DNA of 64,000 nucleotides from Fibrobacterota bacterium. Its GTDB lineage: Bacteria; Fibrobacterota; Fibrobacteria; UBA11236; JADFYW01. Each line of letters opens with the position of its first letter. Positions within the stretch are counted from its first letter, which is position 1. The stretch covers positions 1,828-65,827 of the forward strand of contig JBHPJW010000006.1 of NCBI GenBank assembly GCA_042567505.1. Reading direction: 5' to 3'. Below the pieces are notes generated by a model, which saw only the letters and a program-made list of their open reading frames with translations, ran no database searches and was not told the DNA's origin. The position numbers and the translations under genes are program-made. Positions 11,320-43,446 of the stretch are shown piece by piece.

Positions 11320-12390
11320 ATGAATAGAAATTTGAGTATAGGGTTTATTATTTGTCTGTTGGCCTCTTTTTCCTGGGGTTTAAGGCAGGATACCCTCTGG
11401 GTAGATGTGGTAAATGACTCTGTGGGATTTGCCAATGTTTACAGTGTCACCGGCATAGGGTCTCCCACCTGGCCTCCTGACGCAGAGGGTGTGCGCTATG
11501 ATGATCCCGCCGACGATCCGAATCAGACCTTTGTCCTTGAGGCCGGTGGAGTGATTACGCATACTGTCTATGAGGAAACAGGCGTGCTTTTCGGATATCT
11601 GGCCACTAAAAAGAAGTACGCCAACTACCGATTCAGGGTGGATTACAGGTTTGATGAGACTAATGATGAGGGCTTTCAAGCTTACAATTCAGGCATACTG
11701 TATCATATCCAGAGCGATTACATCTGGCCTCCCTGTATTGAATCCAATATGTATACCGGACATCCCACTGCCATTAATGGAATAGGCGATGACGGTATGG
11801 TATCGGTCACTCCCACGAAATCAGGCTATGGCAACGGCGGCTCCAATGCCCAGGAATTGGGCAGGGACCACCCTGCCGGGGAATGGTATACCATGGAGAT
11901 CGAAGTCCATGGTAGCGACTTAGTGACCCACTACCTCAGCGGCATAGAAGCGGCCCAGGGGGAGGACGTGACCTTTGGGGGAGATCCGGTTGATTCGGGT
12001 AATGTATCTATTCAGGTCGAGGCTTCCGGCATATCATTTCGGAACATGCAAATCCGCGATTTTGATTCGCCGATTTTCTGGGGCTGCACGAATTCCGATG
12101 CCGATAATTTTGAGCCTGAAGCCACCCATGACGACGGTTCCTGCAATGCCACCGGAGTCCGGATTTCCGGGAATCCCTCATTCTTGAATATTACCCCTGC
12201 GGCTGTTGAAATTAACAGCCCTGGAGAGCACTACCTTGAGGTCCAGGACATTAAGGGCCGCAATATCTTTCAGACAAGGAGCAGCGGACCGCAGACGTAT
12301 CGGTTGGATATGCTGGATAAGCAGGGCGTTTATGTGATACATGCCAGGGTGGGGGAAAAGACAATAGTTAAAAGGATTTTTCTCTATTAG
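11320..12390 (+). CDS. secreted concanavalin-like (DUF1080/3-keto-disaccharide-hydrolase-like) protein with T9SS-type C-terminal sorting domain
   Basis: Signal peptide; motifs NSGILYHIQ and FRNMQIRDF; C-terminus LEVQDIKGRNIF...GVYVIHARVGEKTIVKRIFLY matches the Por/T9SS C-terminal-domain pattern. Confidence 0.6.
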   Translation: MNRNLSIGFIICLLASFSWGLRQDTLWVDVVNDSVGFANVYSVTGIGSPTWPPDAEGVRYDDPADDPNQTFVLEAGGVITHTVYEETGVLFGYLATKKKYANYRFRVDYRFDETNDEGFQAYNSGILYHIQSDYIWPPCIESNMYTGHPTAINGIGDDGMVSVTPTKSGYGNGGSNAQELGRDHPAGEWYTMEIEVHGSDLVTHYLSGIEAAQGEDVTFGGDPVDSGNVSIQVEASGISFRNMQIRDFDSPIFWGCTNSDADNFEPEATHDDGSCNATGVRISGNPSFLNITPAAVEINSPGEHYLEVQDIKGRNIFQTRSSGPQTYRLDMLDKQGVYVIHARVGEKTIVKRIFLY

Positions 12391-18649: not shown

Positions 18650-21600
18650 CTATTCCAGCGTAAAGGCGTCCAGGTTGCCTCCGGCGGTGCCGAATATCAC
18701 CAGACCGGCATCCTCGCTTATCCAGGGACCGGCGTCAGCGTCGTCAGAAGCGTCGCTGTAGGGCCAATTGGTCATGGTTGCGGCGCTGGAGGCGTTGTCG
18801 TCTATGGCATAATATCGCCCTCCCTGCCGGCCGAAGTACACAACGGTGTCCCAGGGCAGGGGAGCTGCGTTTACGGTATCCAGTGCGTCATAAGCCCAGT
18901 CGACAGTGGCCGCTATGCCTGAGCCGTTGTCGGATACTTTCTTCACGTTGTTTTCCACAGCAACGTAGATGTCTCCGGTGTTGGCGGTGTCGTCGGAGGT
19001 CTTTCCCATAATAAAGGCCGGGCCGGTGTTGGCGGTACCCAGGTTCACGGAAGTGGGAGACCATTTAAACGACCAGGTGGAAATAGTGATGGCGTACAGG
19101 CTGGAGGTGGCGGGTGTCACATAAAGCGTGTTCCTGTCCACCAGCAGGGGCAGCTGAACGTCTGTGCCCATGTTGATACCGGCGCCGGTCTGGGTTCCGT
19201 CGTAATCATACTTGTAGACATATCCGCCCCCGCCCGTGGCCGTGGCGACATATATCTCATCATTTTTTACCACGAGGTCCGCGCTCAGGCTGACGTCGGC
19301 CAGGTTCACCGGCCATCCGCTCATGGTGGAATCATTAATGTAATTATACCTTGTTATGTAGTTTGTATAGGTAATAAAAAACGTGGAGTCGTCCGGGCTG
19401 GCATAGGGATTGCCCGCCGTGGCGTTGAGATCAAGGGGCGTGAAGACTTCGGAAGAGGAAGAAATATCATCCTGCCTGCCTATCACGTATTCTCCGGCTG
19501 AAGCGAAGATCTTGTATTTGCTTACGTCCGTGTCGTAGACATAAGTGGGCATGTTGCATGCCCCGTATGCCGAGGTGGAAAAAAACCATTTCTGCTGCCC
19601 GTCGCTCAAATTATAGCTGAAGAGCCTGTTAACGCCGGATCCTGTGCCTATATAAATCCGGTTCTCGGTAATGGCCCCGCCCTGCACAGGGCCCAGGCCT
19701 GTCTTGCTCCATGCTGCGGCCACCATATTCTTGGTGTAATTGTCTATGGAAGCAGTGGAGTCGCCGTTTCCGATGGCGTCGAAGGCCCAGATTTTGAAGT
19801 AATACAAGGTGTTTATACTCAGTCCGGTGATGGTGGTGGAGGTGGTGGCAGCTGACGTCAGGGCGCCGTCGTCGCCATCGTCCCATTCCGTGCCGGAGCT
19901 GTCCCGCGCCTCTGCCAGGGTGGTGCCGTACCAGATCTCATAGTGATCAAAGTTCCGGTCCGTGGCTGCGGTCCACCCCAGGGTAACCGTGGTGCCCGTG
20001 GAGTCCGATCCCGCCAGGGAGGCCAGCCCGGCCGGAATTTTGGTATCGATGGCAAAAGTATCGCTTTCGGTGGTGTCCCTATTGGATGAGCCGTCGGTGG
20101 CTATCACCCGGACCAGGTACACGGTATCTGTGTTGGGCAGGTCCGTGTCGACGTCCCAGAGGATGGTATCATTTCCCGTGGCCGAGGTGTCTATGCCCGT
20201 GCCTATGTCCCCGGAAGTGGTTTCCAGGCTGTCATTGCTGTCCCAGCTGCCGCCGTAGAGCTTGTACTCCACTTTTATGTCTACCGTGCCGTCATTGGCG
20301 TCATCAACCTCATACCCCACTCTCACGCTGTCTGGGTGGTATTGGGCGGCATTGACATAAGGCGCGTCATCCCATCCCGTCACCACTGGATCATTTGTGG
20401 CCAGGGTGGTGGTGTTTACGTCAGTATCCGTGTCCTCATTGCCCATGGAATCCAGAGCCCATATCTTAAAGTAATAGGTGGAGGAGGGAATGAGCGAAGT
20501 GATATTGGTGGTGTCGGTGGCCATGGTGGCCAGGGATGCGTCATTGTCCTGGTCCCATTCCAGGGCCGTTCCGGTGCGGCCCTGGACGTCCGACTGGCTG
20601 GTGCCATACCAAATTTCATAATGGGAAAAATGGGATTCGCTGCTGGTAACCGTCCAGGAAAGCCCCACGTCGGTGGCATTTGTGGCCCCAACTGTCAGGC
20701 CGGCCAGTCCCGAGGGGTCCACCAGGTCTATATCAAAGCTGCCGGAGACCGTGGTGTCTGTATTGCTGTCGTCGTCGATGCAGTGGACCCTGACGTTATA
20801 GGCGGCGTCTGTGGTACCGGGGATCAAATCAGTGTATACGTCCCACTGCAGGGTGTCATCTATGCTCGCTCCCGTAGAAATGGTATCGTAATCCCCGGAA
20901 AGCGTGGACGGGTTTGTCCAGGAACAGGAGCTCGCCAGGCAGTATTGCAGCGAACAGACGGCCGTGGTATCGTTGTCATCGCTTACCTCATAGCCCACCC
21001 GGACCGTGCCGGAGTCTATTTGCTCGGCGTCAACCTGGGCGGCCTGGTCCCAGCCCGTGACCGTGGGCGCCGGGTCATCCAGGGTGGTTGTGCTGTCCCC
21101 TGTTATCGTAGCTTCGTTATTCATGGCATCCACGGCCCAGATTTTAAAATGATACTTGGTGGAAGGGCTCAAACCGGTAACAATCATGCTGGTGGTGGCT
21201 ATGTCCTTCATGCCGTTGTTGTTGTCCCCGTCCCATTCCAGGGCTGATCCGTTGCGGTTTTCCACTTCGCTTTTAGAAGAACCGTACCAGATTTCATAGT
21301 GGTCGAAATGTCCTTCATCGGATAATGCCGTCCAGGAAAAACTCACTGAAGTGCTTAAAGGATCCACCACGGCAAAGTCGGCCAGCCCCACCGGAGATTT
21401 GGTGTCCAGGCCGAAGGCCGCGCTCTGCGCGGTGTCGGCCAGCCCGCCGTCACTGGCGATGACGCGCACGTAATAGGTGCCGTCTATGGCATCGCCCAGT
21501 TGGTCACGAACGCTCCATCTAATGGTACGATCGGCGTACTCATTGGTGGCGTCCACTCCGGCGCCTATGTTCCCGGCGGTATCGGTGGCGGCGGTCCAGG

Positions 21601-24370
21601 ACCCCCCGTCCGGCTTGTATTGCAGGGTCACGGTAACTGTGGCGTCGTACTGGTCATAGACCTCGTACTGGATGGTGGCGGAATCCGTCTCGTCTTGCGA
21701 AGCAGTCACGGTACTGGTCGCCCCCAGTCCCGTGACCTGGGGAGGATAAAGCACATAGGTCACCTCCACGTACGGAACGTTGGCCCCTTCGGAAGCGTGG
21801 AAATTCTTATAGGATTCGTTGGTCCCTTCGGCATTGGAGATGAACACCATGCCATAATTGGCGCTATCGCCCGAGTGCCAGTCCTTAAAGGTCTGGGTTA
21901 TGTCCCAGGTATACCAGCCGGTGTTTCCCACCGAGGCGCTCACCACAGAGGCTGATCGGTCATTTCCCTCGGATCCTACGCCGGCCGTGGTCCAGGTGTT
22001 TTCATCGGCGTATTCGGTCCAGTTGCTCATGTTGGCCTGGTCCTGGCCCGTTCCAGTTCCCTCATTCCAGTCCCTCAATACCCTGTAGAGAGTGATGGTC
22101 TGGTTGGTGGCGCTGCCCACCGACCCGCAATAGGACTTAAATTCAGCCAGGAGAACAGTGGCCCCGGTGGGCACATCGCTGAAATCATTCACCTTCACCA
22201 GGGAGCGCATAACGTAGCTGCCGCCCCCGCCGGAACCGACCTTGCCTGCCGTGGCCCCGCCCCGCGTGGCGTCATTGCCGTAATTATAACTGGTATTTAA
22301 GTTTTCTATCATATTGTCATCAAGGTCGGTGAGCTGGACCACTGAATCCGCGTCTGTTTCGGCCAGGGTGGTGACGGCCGTATCGTTGATAGCCGTTTCG
22401 TTGCCGTAATCATCCATGGCCCATACCTGGAAGTAGTATGTTCTTTCGGCCAGCAGGCCGGTGATGGTGGTGGAAGTAGTGGCAGCGCTGGCAAGATTGC
22501 TGTCGTCCGGATCGTTGTCCCATTCCGCCGCGTTGCTGCGGTTCTGCACGCTGGTGGAATCTATGCCGTACCATACTTCATAATGATTGAAATTCCCGTC
22601 TGTGGCGGCGCTGGACCAGCTCAGGGCCACGGTGCTCATGGTGGTGTCGGTGGACGAGAGCGTGGCGGAAAAGGAGGGAACCTCGGTGTCTATGATGAAT
22701 TCCGCCGTAGCCGCCGTATCGATATTGCTGCCATCGTCCTCGGCCAGAATCCTGATGTAAGCAGTGGTGTCTGTTGAGCCGAACTGGGTGCGCACGTCCC
22801 AGTAGACAGAAAGGTCTTCCACCATGTCGACCGCGACTGAACCGGTGTCCCCGTCGGTATTGGCCTTGAAGTCGGCCCAGGCGGTCCAGGAGGCATCGTC
22901 CTTGAGTTTCATTTCCATGGTTACGGTGATGGCGGAATCGTCCTGGTCCCAGGCCTCGTATTTCACCTGTACGCTGTCGGTGTTTATCTGCACCGCCACC
23001 GGATCGACGATGGGGTCCCATCCCGTGATGAGCGGAACTACCGAGGTGAGGGTGTTGGCGCTGTCGGGATCCGTGGTCATTTCGTTGCCGGTTGAGTCTA
23101 TGGCCCATAACTTGAAATAATACTTGGTGTTGTATTCCAGCAGGATTACCTGGGCGCTGTCCGTGGAAATAGTGTTCATGACAGCGTAATCATCCGGGTC
23201 CCATACATACGCCGATACGTTCCTTTCTTCCACATTGGTGAGGTTGGTCCCGTACCAGATCTCATACTTGCTGAAATGGGCCTCGCTGGCCACGGTCCAT
23301 TCCAGGTCCACCGTAGAAAAACCCGAGTCCACCACAGTGAAATCCGCCAGGGAAACGGGGTCCCTGGTATCGATTACAAAGGAAGAGGTGCTTACCGTGT
23401 CCGCGTATCCCTCATCATCGGTGGCTATTGCCCTGACTATGTAGCTGCTGTCAATGCCGGACCCCAGCTGAGCATAGGCGTCCCATACAATGACCCGGTC
23501 CGAGGATGAGGAATTGGCTTCCACGCTGCCTATGTCCCCGGAGGTATTTGTGAGTGCAGTCCAGCCGCCGGCTCCGCCCACCTGGTACTGGGCCGTTATA
23601 GTCACATTATCATCGTCGCTGTCGCTGACTTCATAGGAAATATTTACCGTACTGGTGTCCTCCTGGTCTCCGGTGGCGTTGGCCCCGGAGCTGAGGCCGG
23701 TTATGACCGGCAGTACTCTATACCATACATCGAGGTATGGCTTGTTGGACCCGGCGTCCAGTGAGTTGAAATTCTTTCTCAGATCATCCGCTTCGGTGCC
23801 TTCCAGGATGAGCCCGTAATTAGTTAAATCGCCGTCAACCCAATCCTGAGCAGCTCCTGTCACCCGCCATTTGAACCAGGTGGAGGTGGCGTTTATCACC
23901 ACAGAGTCATAGGCCGAGGCCCCGCGGTCAGTCCCGGCCGTGGCGGCGCCGCTTGCATCCCAGGTGGAAACGTTATGTTTGTTTGAGTTCCAGCTGACCG
24001 CGCCGTCCTGTTCGGCGCCGTCTGCGCTGCCTTCCAGCCAGTCCTGCAGCAGGTGGTATACCCAGATTGATTCAGGGCTGGCCACATCTTCGCCTGAGCA
24101 ATACAGTGCCAGGTCAGCACTGTCTATGACGGCATCGCTGGGCAGGGTGTCGTCTATGGGGAAATTGATGACAATCCGGTAGGGTCCCCTATTCGCTAAA
24201 GCCTCCGTGGTTATGTATCCCAGATACAGGGTGGAGGAGCCCCCATAGTTGTCATCTGCGGATTTATCATTGATATGGGCGTCATTTCCAATGGTAAACT
24301 GCTTGTAAGTGGCCTGGCACAGGCTGCCTAATATGGCAATCATAAGCCCTGTTTTTAAAACCTTATGCAT
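18650..24370 (-). CDS. giant (1906 aa) secreted modular surface protein: two copies of a ~150-aa N-terminal module, at least 5 alternating Ig-like/FN3-like domain pairs, C-terminal PQQ-like beta-propeller
   Basis: Signal peptide. FN3-like repeats anchored by H(F/Y)xxYEIWYG...YYFK(I/L)WA(I/V)D. Second repeat type anchored by (V/I)TGWD...YEV.D.D...Y.VR(I/V)(I/H)A. Module with LY/VYxxLxDW(N/L)EG...NYG(L/M)...PY(L/V)(D/E)V occurs twice. C-terminal WxF/DGxxKW propeller blades. Long internal DNA direct repeats. Confidence 0.8.
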   Translation of the reverse strand: MHKVLKTGLMIAILGSLCQATYKQFTIGNDAHINDKSADDNYGGSSTLYLGYITTEALANRGPYRIVINFPIDDTLPSDAVIDSADLALYCSGEDVASPESIWVYHLLQDWLEGSADGAEQDGAVSWNSNKHNVSTWDASGAATAGTDRGASAYDSVVINATSTWFKWRVTGAAQDWVDGDLTNYGLILEGTEADDLRKNFNSLDAGSNKPYLDVWYRVLPVITGLSSGANATGDQEDTSTVNISYEVSDSDDDNVTITAQYQVGGAGGWTALTNTSGDIGSVEANSSSSDRVIVWDAYAQLGSGIDSSYIVRAIATDDEGYADTVSTSSFVIDTRDPVSLADFTVVDSGFSTVDLEWTVASEAHFSKYEIWYGTNLTNVEERNVSAYVWDPDDYAVMNTISTDSAQVILLEYNTKYYFKLWAIDSTGNEMTTDPDSANTLTSVVPLITGWDPIVDPVAVQINTDSVQVKYEAWDQDDSAITVTMEMKLKDDASWTAWADFKANTDGDTGSVAVDMVEDLSVYWDVRTQFGSTDTTAYIRILAEDDGSNIDTAATAEFIIDTEVPSFSATLSSTDTTMSTVALSWSSAATDGNFNHYEVWYGIDSTSVQNRSNAAEWDNDPDDSNLASAATTSTTITGLLAERTYYFQVWAMDDYGNETAINDTAVTTLAETDADSVVQLTDLDDNMIENLNTSYNYGNDATRGGATAGKVGSGGGGSYVMRSLVKVNDFSDVPTGATVLLAEFKSYCGSVGSATNQTITLYRVLRDWNEGTGTGQDQANMSNWTEYADENTWTTAGVGSEGNDRSASVVSASVGNTGWYTWDITQTFKDWHSGDSANYGMVFISNAEGTNESYKNFHASEGANVPYVEVTYVLYPPQVTGLGATSTVTASQDETDSATIQYEVYDQYDATVTVTLQYKPDGGSWTAATDTAGNIGAGVDATNEYADRTIRWSVRDQLGDAIDGTYYVRVIASDGGLADTAQSAAFGLDTKSPVGLADFAVVDPLSTSVSFSWTALSDEGHFDHYEIWYGSSKSEVENRNGSALEWDGDNNNGMKDIATTSMIVTGLSPSTKYHFKIWAVDAMNNEATITGDSTTTLDDPAPTVTGWDQAAQVDAEQIDSGTVRVGYEVSDDNDTTAVCSLQYCLASSCSWTNPSTLSGDYDTISTGASIDDTLQWDVYTDLIPGTTDAAYNVRVHCIDDDSNTDTTVSGSFDIDLVDPSGLAGLTVGATNATDVGLSWTVTSSESHFSHYEIWYGTSQSDVQGRTGTALEWDQDNDASLATMATDTTNITSLIPSSTYYFKIWALDSMGNEDTDTDVNTTTLATNDPVVTGWDDAPYVNAAQYHPDSVRVGYEVDDANDGTVDIKVEYKLYGGSWDSNDSLETTSGDIGTGIDTSATGNDTILWDVDTDLPNTDTVYLVRVIATDGSSNRDTTESDTFAIDTKIPAGLASLAGSDSTGTTVTLGWTAATDRNFDHYEIWYGTTLAEARDSSGTEWDDGDDGALTSAATTSTTITGLSINTLYYFKIWAFDAIGNGDSTASIDNYTKNMVAAAWSKTGLGPVQGGAITENRIYIGTGSGVNRLFSYNLSDGQQKWFFSTSAYGACNMPTYVYDTDVSKYKIFASAGEYVIGRQDDISSSSEVFTPLDLNATAGNPYASPDDSTFFITYTNYITRYNYINDSTMSGWPVNLADVSLSADLVVKNDEIYVATATGGGGYVYKYDYDGTQTGAGINMGTDVQLPLLVDRNTLYVTPATSSLYAITISTWSFKWSPTSVNLGTANTGPAFIMGKTSDDTANTGDIYVAVENNVKKVSDNGSGIAATVDWAYDALDTVNAAPLPWDTVVYFGRQGGRYYAIDDNASSAATMTNWPYSDASDDADAGPWISEDAGLVIFGTAGGNLDAFTLE

Positions 24371-35535: not shown

Positions 35536-35570
35536 GACAGGAAATTTTCAGGGTTGTCTTCGTTTTTTTT
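35535..35570 (+). terminator. candidate rho-independent terminator after the histidine kinase gene
   Basis: agaca...tgtct short stem followed by tcgtttttttt; weak. Confidence 0.3.
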
Positions 35571-35930
35571 CCAGGTGTTTTTGCCTCCTCGCTTCCTGAC
35601 GTTGATGAAAGACGTCATCCAGATAGCATTCTTTAGATATGAGGAAAACTATTACCATGAAAGACAGGATGAGGCAGGCGCTTTCAAAGGTGACTGTATT
35701 CAAGATGGCGGTCAGCAATTCAGTGTACCTTGTGAAATAATGAAATTTATTGTGGGCATTTCGGTTCGTCCTCAGCAGGATCCCATACCACTACCATTTG
35801 ATTTTATCATGACTTATTGAAAAAATCCATCCGCAATCATCAAAAAACATAATTTTCTAAAAACTCTCAAAAACATTGCACAGGAAAGCTTTAGTAATAG
35901 GCCTGATTTTACGATATAATTAGTATTGAT

Positions 35931-39201: not shown

Positions 39202-40554
39202 ATGAAACTATTGCTCTCCGCTATCCTGCTCAGTCTCATCCCGGTCTTTTCGGGGCAGGAATTAAACATCCTGATAAAAATGATCCCTGACCAGGAGAAG
39301 TACTTTACTGAAACCATAATCAAGGGATTTGAAAAGCAGAGGGGCTGCAAGGTCAATGTTCATACATTCACCGATCACTGGCAGCTCACCGAAAAATTAA
39401 AACCCGGCCAACCCCCGATGGATGTGGTAAAGGTCCCCATGGGCATGGCCCATCGCCTGGCGTCTAAAAAACTGGTGCACCCCCTGGCCAAAGTGATTCA
39501 GGCTGAAAAGCTGAATAAAATAAAGAAGGATTATTTTCTGCTGAAACTGGCGGAGGTTGAGGGCGAACTCTATTATATCCCCAGGAAATTCGAAACCCGC
39601 ATAATGGTATACTTGAAATCCAAAGTAGTGGAGGCGGTGGAAAACTGGTCCGGCATGCGGCCGGCCATTGAAGCCGAACTCAAAAAGGCCCTGGGAGTGG
39701 GGCTGCCGGACACCTATCTGCTGGTGGATGACCCCAGCGACTGGAGTTATCTGGACGTGTTTGTGGCGGGATATTACTGGGCCCATACCAAATATGAGGG
39801 GACTGCTTTCGGGCGGGTGGCGCACCGGGGCAAGGATTACAGCGGGACCGCGCTCGGCCTTATGGACCGCTGCTTTCAGATGGGCGCAAAGAGACAGGAT
39901 TTGTCTGATGTAAAGTCAAAATATTTTACCGAGGTCCTCAAGTGGGAGTCGCTGTACGCGGGGAATAAAATCTACAACGCAGAGTCCTGGGAATCGGGTT
40001 GGGACGGAAGGGATATCTGGAAGGCCTTTCAGGAAGGCAAGGTGTTTCTTTCCTTTCTGACTCAGCTGGACTGTTACTTTCTGCATGGCTCGGAAGGGGC
40101 CAAGGGATATGTTAAGAATCCCGCGGACCTGGACTTCGCCCTGACGCCCGCGGCCGTTCCCTTAAACGACAAATTCGACGGAAGCCGCCGCATAAGCACG
40201 GGCGGATGGCTCTGGGGCATTGGGTCCCAGTCCAAAAAGGCGGAACTGGCAATGGAGCTCATTCGTTTTATTACCAGTAACCAGAACCAAATTGGGGAGA
40301 CGGAGCGGTTCGGCATGATACCCGTGCGGAAAGACATTCTCGGCCGGTCGGCGCCGTTCAAAGATGACTGGAAAGTAAGAGTATTCAACACTTCTTCAAG
40401 GCAGTTAAGGACCAACAGGAGTAATTACCTGCCCCATGTGGAGGGCTTTGAAAAACTGGAAAAGCAGTATATAGCCGTCTGGAAGAAGGTGGTGATCGCC
40501 AGTGAAAAGGGATACCTGGGAGAGGACAAGGTAAAAAAAATACAGATGAAATAA
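39202..40554 (+). CDS. extracellular solute-binding protein (ABC transporter SBP family 1-like), orphan
   Basis: Signal peptide; SBP_bac_1-like length and composition; no adjacent permease or ATPase genes. Confidence 0.55.
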   Translation: MKLLLSAILLSLIPVFSGQELNILIKMIPDQEKYFTETIIKGFEKQRGCKVNVHTFTDHWQLTEKLKPGQPPMDVVKVPMGMAHRLASKKLVHPLAKVIQAEKLNKIKKDYFLLKLAEVEGELYYIPRKFETRIMVYLKSKVVEAVENWSGMRPAIEAELKKALGVGLPDTYLLVDDPSDWSYLDVFVAGYYWAHTKYEGTAFGRVAHRGKDYSGTALGLMDRCFQMGAKRQDLSDVKSKYFTEVLKWESLYAGNKIYNAESWESGWDGRDIWKAFQEGKVFLSFLTQLDCYFLHGSEGAKGYVKNPADLDFALTPAAVPLNDKFDGSRRISTGGWLWGIGSQSKKAELAMELIRFITSNQNQIGETERFGMIPVRKDILGRSAPFKDDWKVRVFNTSSRQLRTNRSNYLPHVEGFEKLEKQYIAVWKKVVIASEKGYLGEDKVKKIQMK

Positions 40555-40578: not shown

Positions 40579-40608
40579 AGATTGTAGCGGCGTGCCGGCG
40601 GCACGCCG
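40579..40608. repeat. palindromic element GGCGTGCC-GGC-GGCACGCC (REP/terminator-like)
   Basis: tagcggcgtgccggcggcacgccgttataaa, 25 nt after the SBP stop. Confidence 0.7.
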
Positions 40609-41119
40609 TTATAAATATTTATTGAACAACAACTTACAAGACGTTTCCCAGGTCGATTGGCAAGCGTGGGTTCCTGATGAAAGAGCTGTCCTGTGTTTTG
40701 TGGAAGACGGAGACAGGGTCATGCTTATCCACAAAAAGACCGGATTGGGAGCGGGAAAGATTAATGCCCCGGGCGGCAGGATCAAACCCGGGGAATCAGC
40801 AGAGGCCGCAGCCATTCGGGAAACCATTGAAGAGACCGGGATAACCCCGTCTGAAACGAAGAAAGCAGGGGAGCTTTCATTTATCTTCACCAATGGATAT
40901 GCACTGCATGGCGAAGTCTTCTTTGCCAGCAGCTATTCTGGTTCGCTCATAACCACACCAGAGGCAGATCCCTTCTGGTGCGACAAGGATAAAATCCCCT
41001 ATGACAAAATGTGGGAAGACGACAGATACTGGCTGCCCCTGGCGCTGGAAGGTAAATACTTTCGCGGATTTTTCATCTTTGATGATGAGGTGATGTTGAG
41101 CCATAGGATTGAAGTGTGA
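40592..41119 (+). CDS. Nudix (MutT-family) hydrolase
   Basis: Nudix box GGRIKPGESAEAAAIRETIEETGI. Confidence 0.85.
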   Translation: MPAARRYKYLLNNNLQDVSQVDWQAWVPDERAVLCFVEDGDRVMLIHKKTGLGAGKINAPGGRIKPGESAEAAAIRETIEETGITPSETKKAGELSFIFTNGYALHGEVFFASSYSGSLITTPEADPFWCDKDKIPYDKMWEDDRYWLPLALEGKYFRGFFIFDDEVMLSHRIEV

Positions 41120-41461
41120 GGATTCGGTTCCATCATTACGAATCCGCTATCCCTTGATGAATCCGGCGATCGTAAAGACCGCAACCCTCAGGCAATCATT
41201 GAATCTCCTGTCACCAGGTATGATATCTTATTCGGCCGGTTAAAAATAGAAGTAGGAAAAGGCAGCCAATGGATTGATGTTGAGGTATTTGATATCAGAG
41301 GGAGCAGAGTCTCTGGCAGTGCGTTAAAGGAATACCGCGCAGGAATGCATTATGTTTCTCTGTTTAACGAATCGTTCCGGAGCGGTGTTTATTTATTGCA
41401 GGTTAATAATGTCACAGCAAATAAAAAATACAGAGAGAAAACCGCATATATAAAAAACTAA
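41120..41461 (+). pseudogene. relic T9SS C-terminal sorting domain, in frame immediately after the Nudix TGA stop
   Basis: Translation ...KIEVGKGSQWIDVEVFDIRGSRVSGSALKEYRAGMHYVSLFNESFRSGVYLLQVNNVTANKKYREKTAYIKN* fits the Por/T9SS CTD pattern (V.V.D..G..V...G.H......SGVY......T..K); no start codon or signal peptide of its own. Confidence 0.45.
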
Positions 41462-42255
41462 GCGAATGAGATAACTGTTCCCAAAACGCGCAAAGTGTTG
41501 CGCAGTCTGGCCCGCCACACACCTTCAGGATTCGGCTATTTTCCTGTATTACGGTGGCAATTACAACCTGCAATATGAAAATGATGTTTACCTGCCGGTG
41601 GACGGGACCAGAAGTACTTATTACGGGGGATATGGCGAAACCAAGGGAGAAAGGAAGCGGCACCAGGCAACACTGGGTGCCGGCATCGGAGGCGAAATAC
41701 ATTTCTGGATCCTGAACTGGTCCCTGATGATGGGCTATGCCGGCACGGGCAGAGTTACTGATTATACTTACTGGGGTGATGTTTACAATCCTATCAGTGA
41801 AGAACCCGAGTTCATGTTTACCCCTTCCATAGAAACTGCGCTGTACCTAAACTTCGGCGGGATATAATAATAGGTCCCGTGACAGGCGGGGGTGGGGAAT
41901 TGATTGGATTATTGTATTGAGGAAGTCAGAAGCAAGTAATTGTTTCGGCTGAAGGCCCATCAGGGATGACTTCTGAAGTCCTCATGAAAAAGGCTATGGG
42001 TTTTAAAAAAGAAAACGATGCAGTTCAGCGAAAATTGAATTTACTGAATCGATGATTTGCTGGGTTTTCCGCAATAATCTAATAAAAAGACAAATATTTT
42101 ACTTGAAATTCAGGTTTTTCTCAAAAAAGCAGAAATATCCCAAAATTCTAAAATTTGAATATTTATTGAGCAATACCTATAATTAGCGGTTCACTAAATC
42201 TCACCTGGTCCCGCATGGGAGGCTGGAAGCGGGTCCTGCAAAAAAAGGAGAAACC

Positions 42256-43446
42256 ATGAAAAAGGCTATACTCATATTTACATTTATTGCTTTGTATTTT
42301 TCCGGGTGTAATACAGCGCCTGTAAGTTCAGATAATAATAAACAGGCCCGGTAGCTGGCAAAAATATCAGACGCGGTCTGGGATACTGAAGATGGAAATC
42401 CTCATTTCTTTTTTCTGCCGCCCATTGTGCCGGCCCCGGCTCCCGAAGGGGTTTTTGATAATACGCTGTCTCCCGTGGTAGAAGTCTGCGAACTCGATGC
42501 GGCGGGCTGCGCCACCGTCGTCCAGTTTACCACCACGCCGGCGGAAGGGGCGGAATACGTGCGCCTGAGCGATGAAGACGAGTCTTATATAGTGAATTGG
42601 CACACAGACCTGTATGACCTGGATGCCTTGAACACCTATCGCATCAAGGTGATGGCCGAAGGACAGGAACTGGGTTACGCCGACGTTGATGTTGTCAACA
42701 GCGGCAAGGATCTCAGACATGTTGACACACAGCAATACATTGCGCTTAAGGACGGCAGGACCCTGCCCATTAAATTCAGAATCGAGCAAGGCGCTTTGCA
42801 GGTACCGGAACCGGGAGGATTGTTTGCCTATTATCCCTTTAATGGTAATGCAAATGATGAGAGTGGCAATGATAATAACGGGACTGTGCATGGTAACGCG
42901 GTATTGACTGCGGACCGGTTTGGAAATCCTAACAGCGCTTACCTGTTCGATGGCGTTGATGATTACATCGATTGCGGAAACGACGCCAGTATAAATATGA
43001 CCACAAATTTCACGGTTTCTGTGTGGGTGAAATTCCATACTTACGGAGATGATAAAACAATCCTTTCCAATGGTTCCGGCCCTTTCTATCAGAATTGGCA
43101 TATTCACAGGCATTCAACACCTTCGGACAAGCTCTATATAGGTATTTATGGGGATTTGCAGCTCAATTTCCTTCCCACAACTCAAACCGGAATCTGGTAT
43201 AATCTGGCATTCTCTATTGAGGATATTGATGGAACCAATGCCAAGGTAACCACTTACCTGAATGGCCAACAGGTCGCTTCAGTTACAGCCATGGCTCCCA
43301 CGGATGTATCCGGTGATAATTTGTATATCGGAAGGTTCACAACCTGTCAGTATCCCTATACCTATGCCTTTAACGGCGTTATTGATGACGTAAGTGTTTA
43401 TAATTACGTTCTAACCGATGCTGAAATAGCTGATTTGTCTAATTGA
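42256..43446 (+). pseudogene. LamG-like (concanavalin/laminin-G_3) lipoprotein gene interrupted by a single in-frame TAG at 42352-42354
   Basis: Lipoprotein signal MKKAILIFTFIALYFSGC (ATG 42256) is in frame with ORF 42427-43446, which has LamG_3 motifs LFAYYPFNGNANDESGNDNNGT...FDGVDDYIDCGN...FTVSVWVK; one amber codon separates them. Confidence 0.55.

Follow-up and report, generated by a model that had tools for sequence, protein, structure and literature searches.

We report that a 113-codon open frame running on behind the stop codon of a Nudix hydrolase gene in a Fibrobacterota contig is probably the dead 3' end of a lost type IX secretion system (T9SS) cargo gene, left in place by a local rearrangement or deletion and sharing the Nudix frame by chance. 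The analysis covered a stretch of 64,000 nucleotides (hereafter the window), and the open frame behind the Nudix stop is called the tail. A sequence-only reading of this DNA had offered three explanations for the tail, namely a remnant of a secreted-protein gene that is in frame by chance, a fusion protein split by a nonsense mutation, and read-through or recoding of the TGA. The first of these is favoured here by a match to the profile of T9SS C-terminal sorting domains (CTDs), by a Nudix stop codon that is native and by the damaged state of the neighbouring genes. Biologically the tail is of little consequence: it illustrates, on a small scale, how genes decay and a locus becomes scrambled in an uncultured member of the Fibrobacterota. 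For annotation, it should be taken neither as a sign of recoding nor as one of a Nudix-CTD fusion. The features of the locus are collected in Table 1.

Table 1. Features of the locus, with positions in the window
Feature	Position	Strand	Description
Nudix hydrolase, complete gene	40592..41119	+	MFC1584375.1, '8-oxo-dGTP diphosphatase', 175 aa from GTG 40592; PF00293, E 2e-16
Native Nudix stop TGA	41117..41119	+	The eight homologues read end 0-6 residues past this point; TGA closes other long ORFs too
Tail	41120-41461	+	113 codons without a start, then TAA; probable 3' remnant of a T9SS cargo gene (short linker and sorting domain)
CTD-like core	41261..41419	+	Tail residues 48-100, matching TIGR04183 positions 17-63 of 72; holds IDVEVFDIRGSRV and SGVYLLQV
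OMP fragment	41475..41867	+	130 open codons (41475-41864), startless; last 89 codons (from GTG 41598) annotated as hypothetical protein MFC1584376.1
LamG lipoprotein gene, interrupted	42256..43446	+	In-frame TAG 42352-42354; Laminin_G_3; weak LPAM_1 match
Locus proteins in NCBI order			Accessions ending in 374 (solute-binding protein), 375 (Nudix), 376 (89-aa hypothetical), 377 (LamG) and 378 (HD-GYP)

A startless open frame behind the Nudix stop

The coordinates and the translation of the tail were confirmed as first described: after the Nudix TGA the same frame remains open over 41120-41458, until it is closed by TAA at 41459-41461. The earliest ATG, GTG or TTG in this frame is the ATG at 41345, which leaves 75 codons (41120-41344) devoid of a start. 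No signal peptide was recognised by eye, either in the tail or at the Nudix N-terminus, where there is no hydrophobic stretch; the earlier description of the tail as lacking both a start codon (ahead of ATG 41345) and a signal peptide therefore holds. Since no start occurs for 75 codons and a complete Nudix gene stands upstream, the tail does not appear able to give rise to a protein. The accessions of the flanking proteins are consecutive, and NCBI thus calls no protein on the tail.

Each of the other five frames of the same stretch contains 3-12 stops, against 0 in the tail frame, so that the openness of the latter does not look accidental. Its base composition is less gene-like. With a GC content of 0.419 and a GC3 of 0.416, the tail lies lower than any of the window's long ORFs (GC3 0.537 +/- 0.058) and near the non-ORF DNA (GC3 0.434), and GC falls over 41000-41450. 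The low GC3 fits relaxed selection or a different origin, 113 codons giving little statistical power in this respect. By codon log-odds, the tail frame ranks first of the six frames, yet it only reaches the 10th percentile of windows taken from real genes, and this score is ambiguous, in part because a frame free of stops raises it. A perfect inverted repeat with arms of 7 bp (GGATTCG, 12 bases, CGAATCC) occupies 41120-41145 (+) and starts at the first base past the Nudix TGA; it is followed by no T-run and is absent from the minimum-energy fold.

The in-frame position of the tail is, by itself, not unusual. A coding remnant lying downstream of the Nudix gene would fall into the Nudix frame by chance one time in three. 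In the window, 3 of 39 long ORFs are followed by at least 90 open in-frame codons, one of these cases being the next gene, and rplO and secY likewise occupy a single frame divided by a stop alone. A local control is found at 35536-35817 (+), where 94 open in-frame codons extend past the TGA of a histidine-kinase gene, with no Pfam match and a weak codon score; it is another in-frame continuation by chance.

The Nudix gene and its native stop

With 1086 homologues in all, the Nudix protein agrees at 100% identity with MFC1584375.1, which comes from a Fibrobacterota MAG (contig of 74,892 bp). Its C-terminus reads ...VMLSHRIEV, and the eight homologues whose ends were read all terminate 0-6 residues past the position of ...MLSHRIEV. 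The best 120 of the 1086 homologues are mostly 160-200 aa long, and none of these 120 bears a CTD. In all six longer homologues that were read (276-304 aa), the extra length is N-terminal and comprises a membrane and zinc-ribbon part. Because the eight homologues end there and the longer ones are extended at the other end, the Nudix stop is native. The six longer proteins form a subfamily with 2 or 3 hydrophobic segments and a zinc-ribbon-like motif (CxxC...CxxC), an architecture which suggests a membrane-anchored form of the enzyme.

The annotated start of the Nudix gene deserves a remark. The Nudix protein of a relative aligns from 40622, and TTG 40622 is more likely to be the true start than GTG 40592. 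A strong terminator-like hairpin (15 pairs followed by a T-rich run) was also observed at 40582-40614 (+), 3' of the solute-binding-protein gene and overlapping GTG 40592.

Similarity of the tail to T9SS sorting domains

The claim that the tail follows the pattern of T9SS CTDs stood up in part. The TIGR04183 (Por_Secre_tail) model does match it specifically, with an E-value of 5.4e-4 against 18,950 models, yet the score of 19.9 bits stays below the curated cut-off of 23; PF18962 similarly gives an E-value of 1.8e-3 and 19 bits, for a curated cut-off of 27. About 30 of the 113 codons precede the domain-like part. Behind the CTD-like core comes a putative lysine-bearing last strand, KTAYIKN, which runs to the tail stop. 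As tail residues 48-100 cover model positions 17-63 of 72, position 63 falling on residue 100 of 113 and the model end about 4 residues short of the TAA, the domain would reach as far as the tail's own stop codon.

Controls for this match were taken from the window and from the tail itself. None of the 149 other open stop-to-stop segments lying outside gene frames in the window matched TIGR04183 at E<=0.01, and 79 shuffles that preserve the composition of the tail gave no such match at E<=1, the best match of these 79 shuffles to any family having an E-value of 0.038. When 41 long ORFs were compared with the same model over their final 110 residues, a single other match was obtained (E 9.8e-6), presumably the protein encoded at 11320-12390, which combines a signal-peptide-like N-terminus with a 3-keto-disaccharide hydrolase domain. 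The CTD of this protein reaches 22.9 bits with TIGR04183 (cut-off 23) and 16.5 bits with the Pfam model, both below cut-off. These scores are similar to those of the tail, and genuine CTDs of the lineage thus score no better than the tail does. A consequence is that CTDs of this lineage lie just under the TIGR04183 and PF18962 cut-offs, and the number of T9SS cargo proteins in such genomes will be underestimated.

Aligned with one another, the tail and the CTD of the 11320-12390 protein have EV.DI.G, GVY and EKT..K in common; FDIRGSRV and KTAYIKN of the tail pair with DIKGRNI and EKTIVKR of the other sequence, the strands being placed by sequence pattern. CTDs have a conserved glycine in the beta3-beta4 loop and a lysine in the last strand (PMC11285876), and the EV.DI.G and EKT..K positions of the tail would fit this glycine and this lysine, respectively. 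A single-sequence AlphaFold2 model of the tail is beta-rich and unreliable (pLDDT 40.8, pTM 0.35). By profile similarity, which is the sole basis of the domain assignment, the likeness to a CTD is very likely real.

The type-A CTDs with solved structures are those of RgpB, HBP35, PorZ and PorU of Porphyromonas gingivalis (PMC11285876). The tail resembles this type in offering some 80 residues at the end of a frame, with residues that suggest a turn of the form D-I-R-G-x-x-V, a strand with G-V-Y and a final strand containing lysine, and in a profile match that is specific though weak, with a score similar to that of the genome's one credible CTD. It differs in having no start, signal peptide or passenger domain, in scoring under the curated cut-offs and in standing directly behind a Nudix gene that itself lacks a signal peptide. 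A functional T9SS cargo combines a Sec signal peptide and a passenger in one polypeptide; the tail contains neither.

The sequence-only reading had also taken the tail, together with the 11320-12390 protein, as support for a T9SS in this organism. Such a system is plausible on a narrow basis, namely one sub-threshold CTD on the signal-peptide-bearing 11320-12390 protein and the report that T9SS may occur in Fibrobacterota (PMC11285876). The window also encodes, at 18650-24370 (-), a protein of 1906 aa with fibronectin-III repeats, a signal-peptide-like N-terminus and a GC3 of 0.70 (window mean 0.54); its last 110 residues are not among the two TIGR04183 matches.

Searches for homologues and orthologous loci

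No homologue of the tail was found in 5.8e9 proteins by a word-indexed search, in the PDB by sequence search or in metagenome contigs by scanning, and tblastn detected no paralogue in the window. A phmmer search against 1.84e9 representatives returned five matches, which were rejected as homologues: each is a multi-repeat protein of the Ig-like (Big_1/Invasin_D3) or Kelch kind, and its score sums 4-7 weak V.V.D..G..V stretches.

The comparison of the locus with related genomes, suggested as a means of finding what had preceded the sorting domain, could be carried out for five contexts of Nudix relatives, in which the downstream genes all differ; it yielded no syntenic relative and no ancestral gene. 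The closest other Nudix proteins are 66-69% identical, and every protein of the locus forms a singleton cluster. A scan of genomes for the solute-binding protein brought up two relatives, 39-40% identical, each with a full ABC operon and without synteny. As the lineage has been sampled once and no close relative has been sampled, neither can the ancestral full-length gene be demonstrated nor the event be reconstructed. In these two relatives (L004 9989-14428; L005 9941-14353), two genes for ABC permeases and one for an ATPase come after that of the solute-binding protein. The corresponding gene of the window, at 39202-40554 (+), is an orphan, followed by the terminator and the Nudix gene.

Damaged genes next to the tail

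The OMP fragment opens 13 bases past the tail stop, in a different frame, and has no start ahead of GTG 41598. It is colinear with residues ~114-209 of a protein of the relatives (BLASTP E 2e-5 and 1e-5; also by tblastn), with which it has LGAG.G.E..FW in common. In the relatives this protein, with a length of about 210 aa, a signal peptide, a beta-rich sequence and F or L as its last residue, resembles a small outer-membrane barrel. In Chitinispirillaceae-like relatives (L001/L002, L003, L007, L010), the small OMP gene precedes the Nudix gene by 10-17 bases; the order in the window is reversed, with the OMP fragment downstream of Nudix, and the first ~110 residues of the small OMP are found nowhere in the window. 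The fragment is gene-like in composition (GC3 0.562; codon score at the 26th percentile). When metagenomes were scanned again, this time with the OMP alignment as query, a single short contig came up, and the sole match of the 89-aa MFC1584376.1 in 5.8e9 proteins is itself. From its alignment with the relatives' protein, MFC1584376.1 is probably a gene fragment.

We also considered the tail as the N-terminal half of this OMP, separated by a frameshift, and rejected it: the tail has no similarity to the N-terminal halves of the relatives' proteins and no signal peptide, and the CTD-like match finishes, as it should, at the tail's own stop.

Further downstream, the LamG gene begins at ATG 42256 behind an AGGAG box and codes for MKKAILIFTFIALYFSGC, a signal peptide with lipobox (…YFSGC), before it meets a single stop, the TAG, and continues in the same frame to Laminin_G_3. 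The NCBI annotation (MFC1584377.1) starts at GTG 42427, without the signal peptide, and probably represents a nonsense-interrupted lipoprotein gene. Within 2.3 kb, the locus thus counts two startless gene fragments and one nonsense-interrupted gene.

Origin of the tail

The course of events that we propose would be as follows. A cargo gene would have lost its start, signal peptide and passenger domain through a local rearrangement or deletion, and the same or a nearby event would have cut the small OMP gene that is normally paired with Nudix. What remained would be a type-A sorting domain of ~80 residues with a short stretch ahead of it, presumably non-functional and untranslated, and the Nudix TGA would simply be the first in-frame stop met on reading upstream from this remnant. 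Like pseudogene fragments of bacteria, the tail is startless and unannotated, retains residual similarity to a domain, has a GC3 like that of non-coding DNA and lies among damaged neighbours; it differs from them in that its ancestral full-length gene cannot be shown. With 113 codons still open, the remnant would have to be young, or else the frame would have been kept for some reason. Decay of a cargo gene is weakened as an explanation by both profile scores being under their curated cut-offs and by the absence of tail homologues.

These same weaknesses speak for a purely accidental likeness, in which intergenic DNA happens to be open in one frame and its beta-strand-like translation mimics a very degenerate CTD profile. 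The composition of the tail, close to non-coding DNA in GC and GC3, and its low codon score agree with such an accident, as do the homologue searches, whose only yield was repeat-inflated phmmer matches. It is nevertheless unlikely in view of the E-value obtained against all 18,950 models, the silence of the non-gene segments and of the shuffles, and the register of the match with the stop codon; moreover, the genome's real CTDs score no better, and we estimate from base composition that at 42% GC a frame open over 113 codons arises with a probability of ~1e-3. An assembly artefact would place the 3' end of a cargo gene from elsewhere beside Nudix in a chimeric MAG contig, and we regard it as quite improbable. 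The contig has been sampled once, all proteins of the locus are singleton clusters and GC drops over the region concerned, which would all suit a chimera. Yet the tail has Nudix on its left and the homologue of a Nudix-linked OMP on its right, and as these flanks belong together a chimera needs two misjoins around a piece of 350 bases; the boundaries show no long repeat, with an identity of 10 bases only.

Decay of a cargo gene must also be set against the two readings that would give the TGA itself a meaning. In the recoding reading, the TGA would encode selenocysteine or be subject to a degree of read-through, yielding a Nudix enzyme with a C-terminal beta-sandwich extension. What draws attention to it are the 113 stop-free codons right after the TGA, the 7-bp inverted repeat directly past the stop and a second in-frame stop, the TAG of the LamG gene, 1.2 kb away. 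Its likeness to programmed read-through or selenocysteine insertion at UGA is confined to the in-frame open continuation and the small adjoining hairpin; a conserved extension, a SECIS-like structure beyond chance and a functional logic are all missing. Indeed, the eight Nudix homologues that were read are all devoid of a C-terminal extension, and the SECIS-like structure for which a search had been advised did not turn up in an Rfam scan of the tail (no match at E<=1) or in the RNA fold of the 81-base stretch that surrounds and follows the TGA (-18 kcal/mol; z = -0.38 relative to shuffles), the 7-bp hairpin being outside the best fold. The two in-frame stops are different codons, TAA, TAG and TGA all close long ORFs in the window, a tRNA scan found no suppressor tRNA in the window, and the GC3 of the tail is unlike that of genes. 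A T9SS tag would also be useless here, since the periplasm is out of reach for a tagged protein that lacks a Sec signal peptide. Recoding thus found no support and is very improbable, and the same low credence applies to a form of it in which low-rate read-through of the Nudix TGA, perhaps aided by the hairpin, would extend some of the molecules by a CTD-type beta-sandwich and might also rescue the TAG-interrupted LamG lipoprotein. If true, it would create a Nudix isoform with a new interaction or localisation module. Reinitiation at the GTG and TTG codons around the Nudix stop was rejected, these codons being in other frames. A nonsense-mutated fusion, that is, an ancestral Nudix-CTD protein split by a point mutation to TGA, has in-frame continuity to recommend it and is hardly credible otherwise: the Nudix homologues read end at this point, the extras of the longer ones being N-terminal; the best 120 of the 1086 show no Pfam family besides NUDIX, apart from one hemerythrin; an unbroken Nudix-CTD frame is absent from the 1086 homologues; and such a fusion makes no biological sense in a protein lacking a signal peptide.

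A possible duplicated gene start in the spacer

An exact direct repeat of 15 bases, CATGAAAAAGGCTAT, was observed at 41983-41997 and 42255-42269 (+). The second copy forms the beginning of the LamG gene, and the first opens a short ORF (MKKAMGFKKENDAVQRKLNLLNR) in an AT-rich spacer with a GC content of 0.32-0.35; the repeat may be a duplicated gene start.
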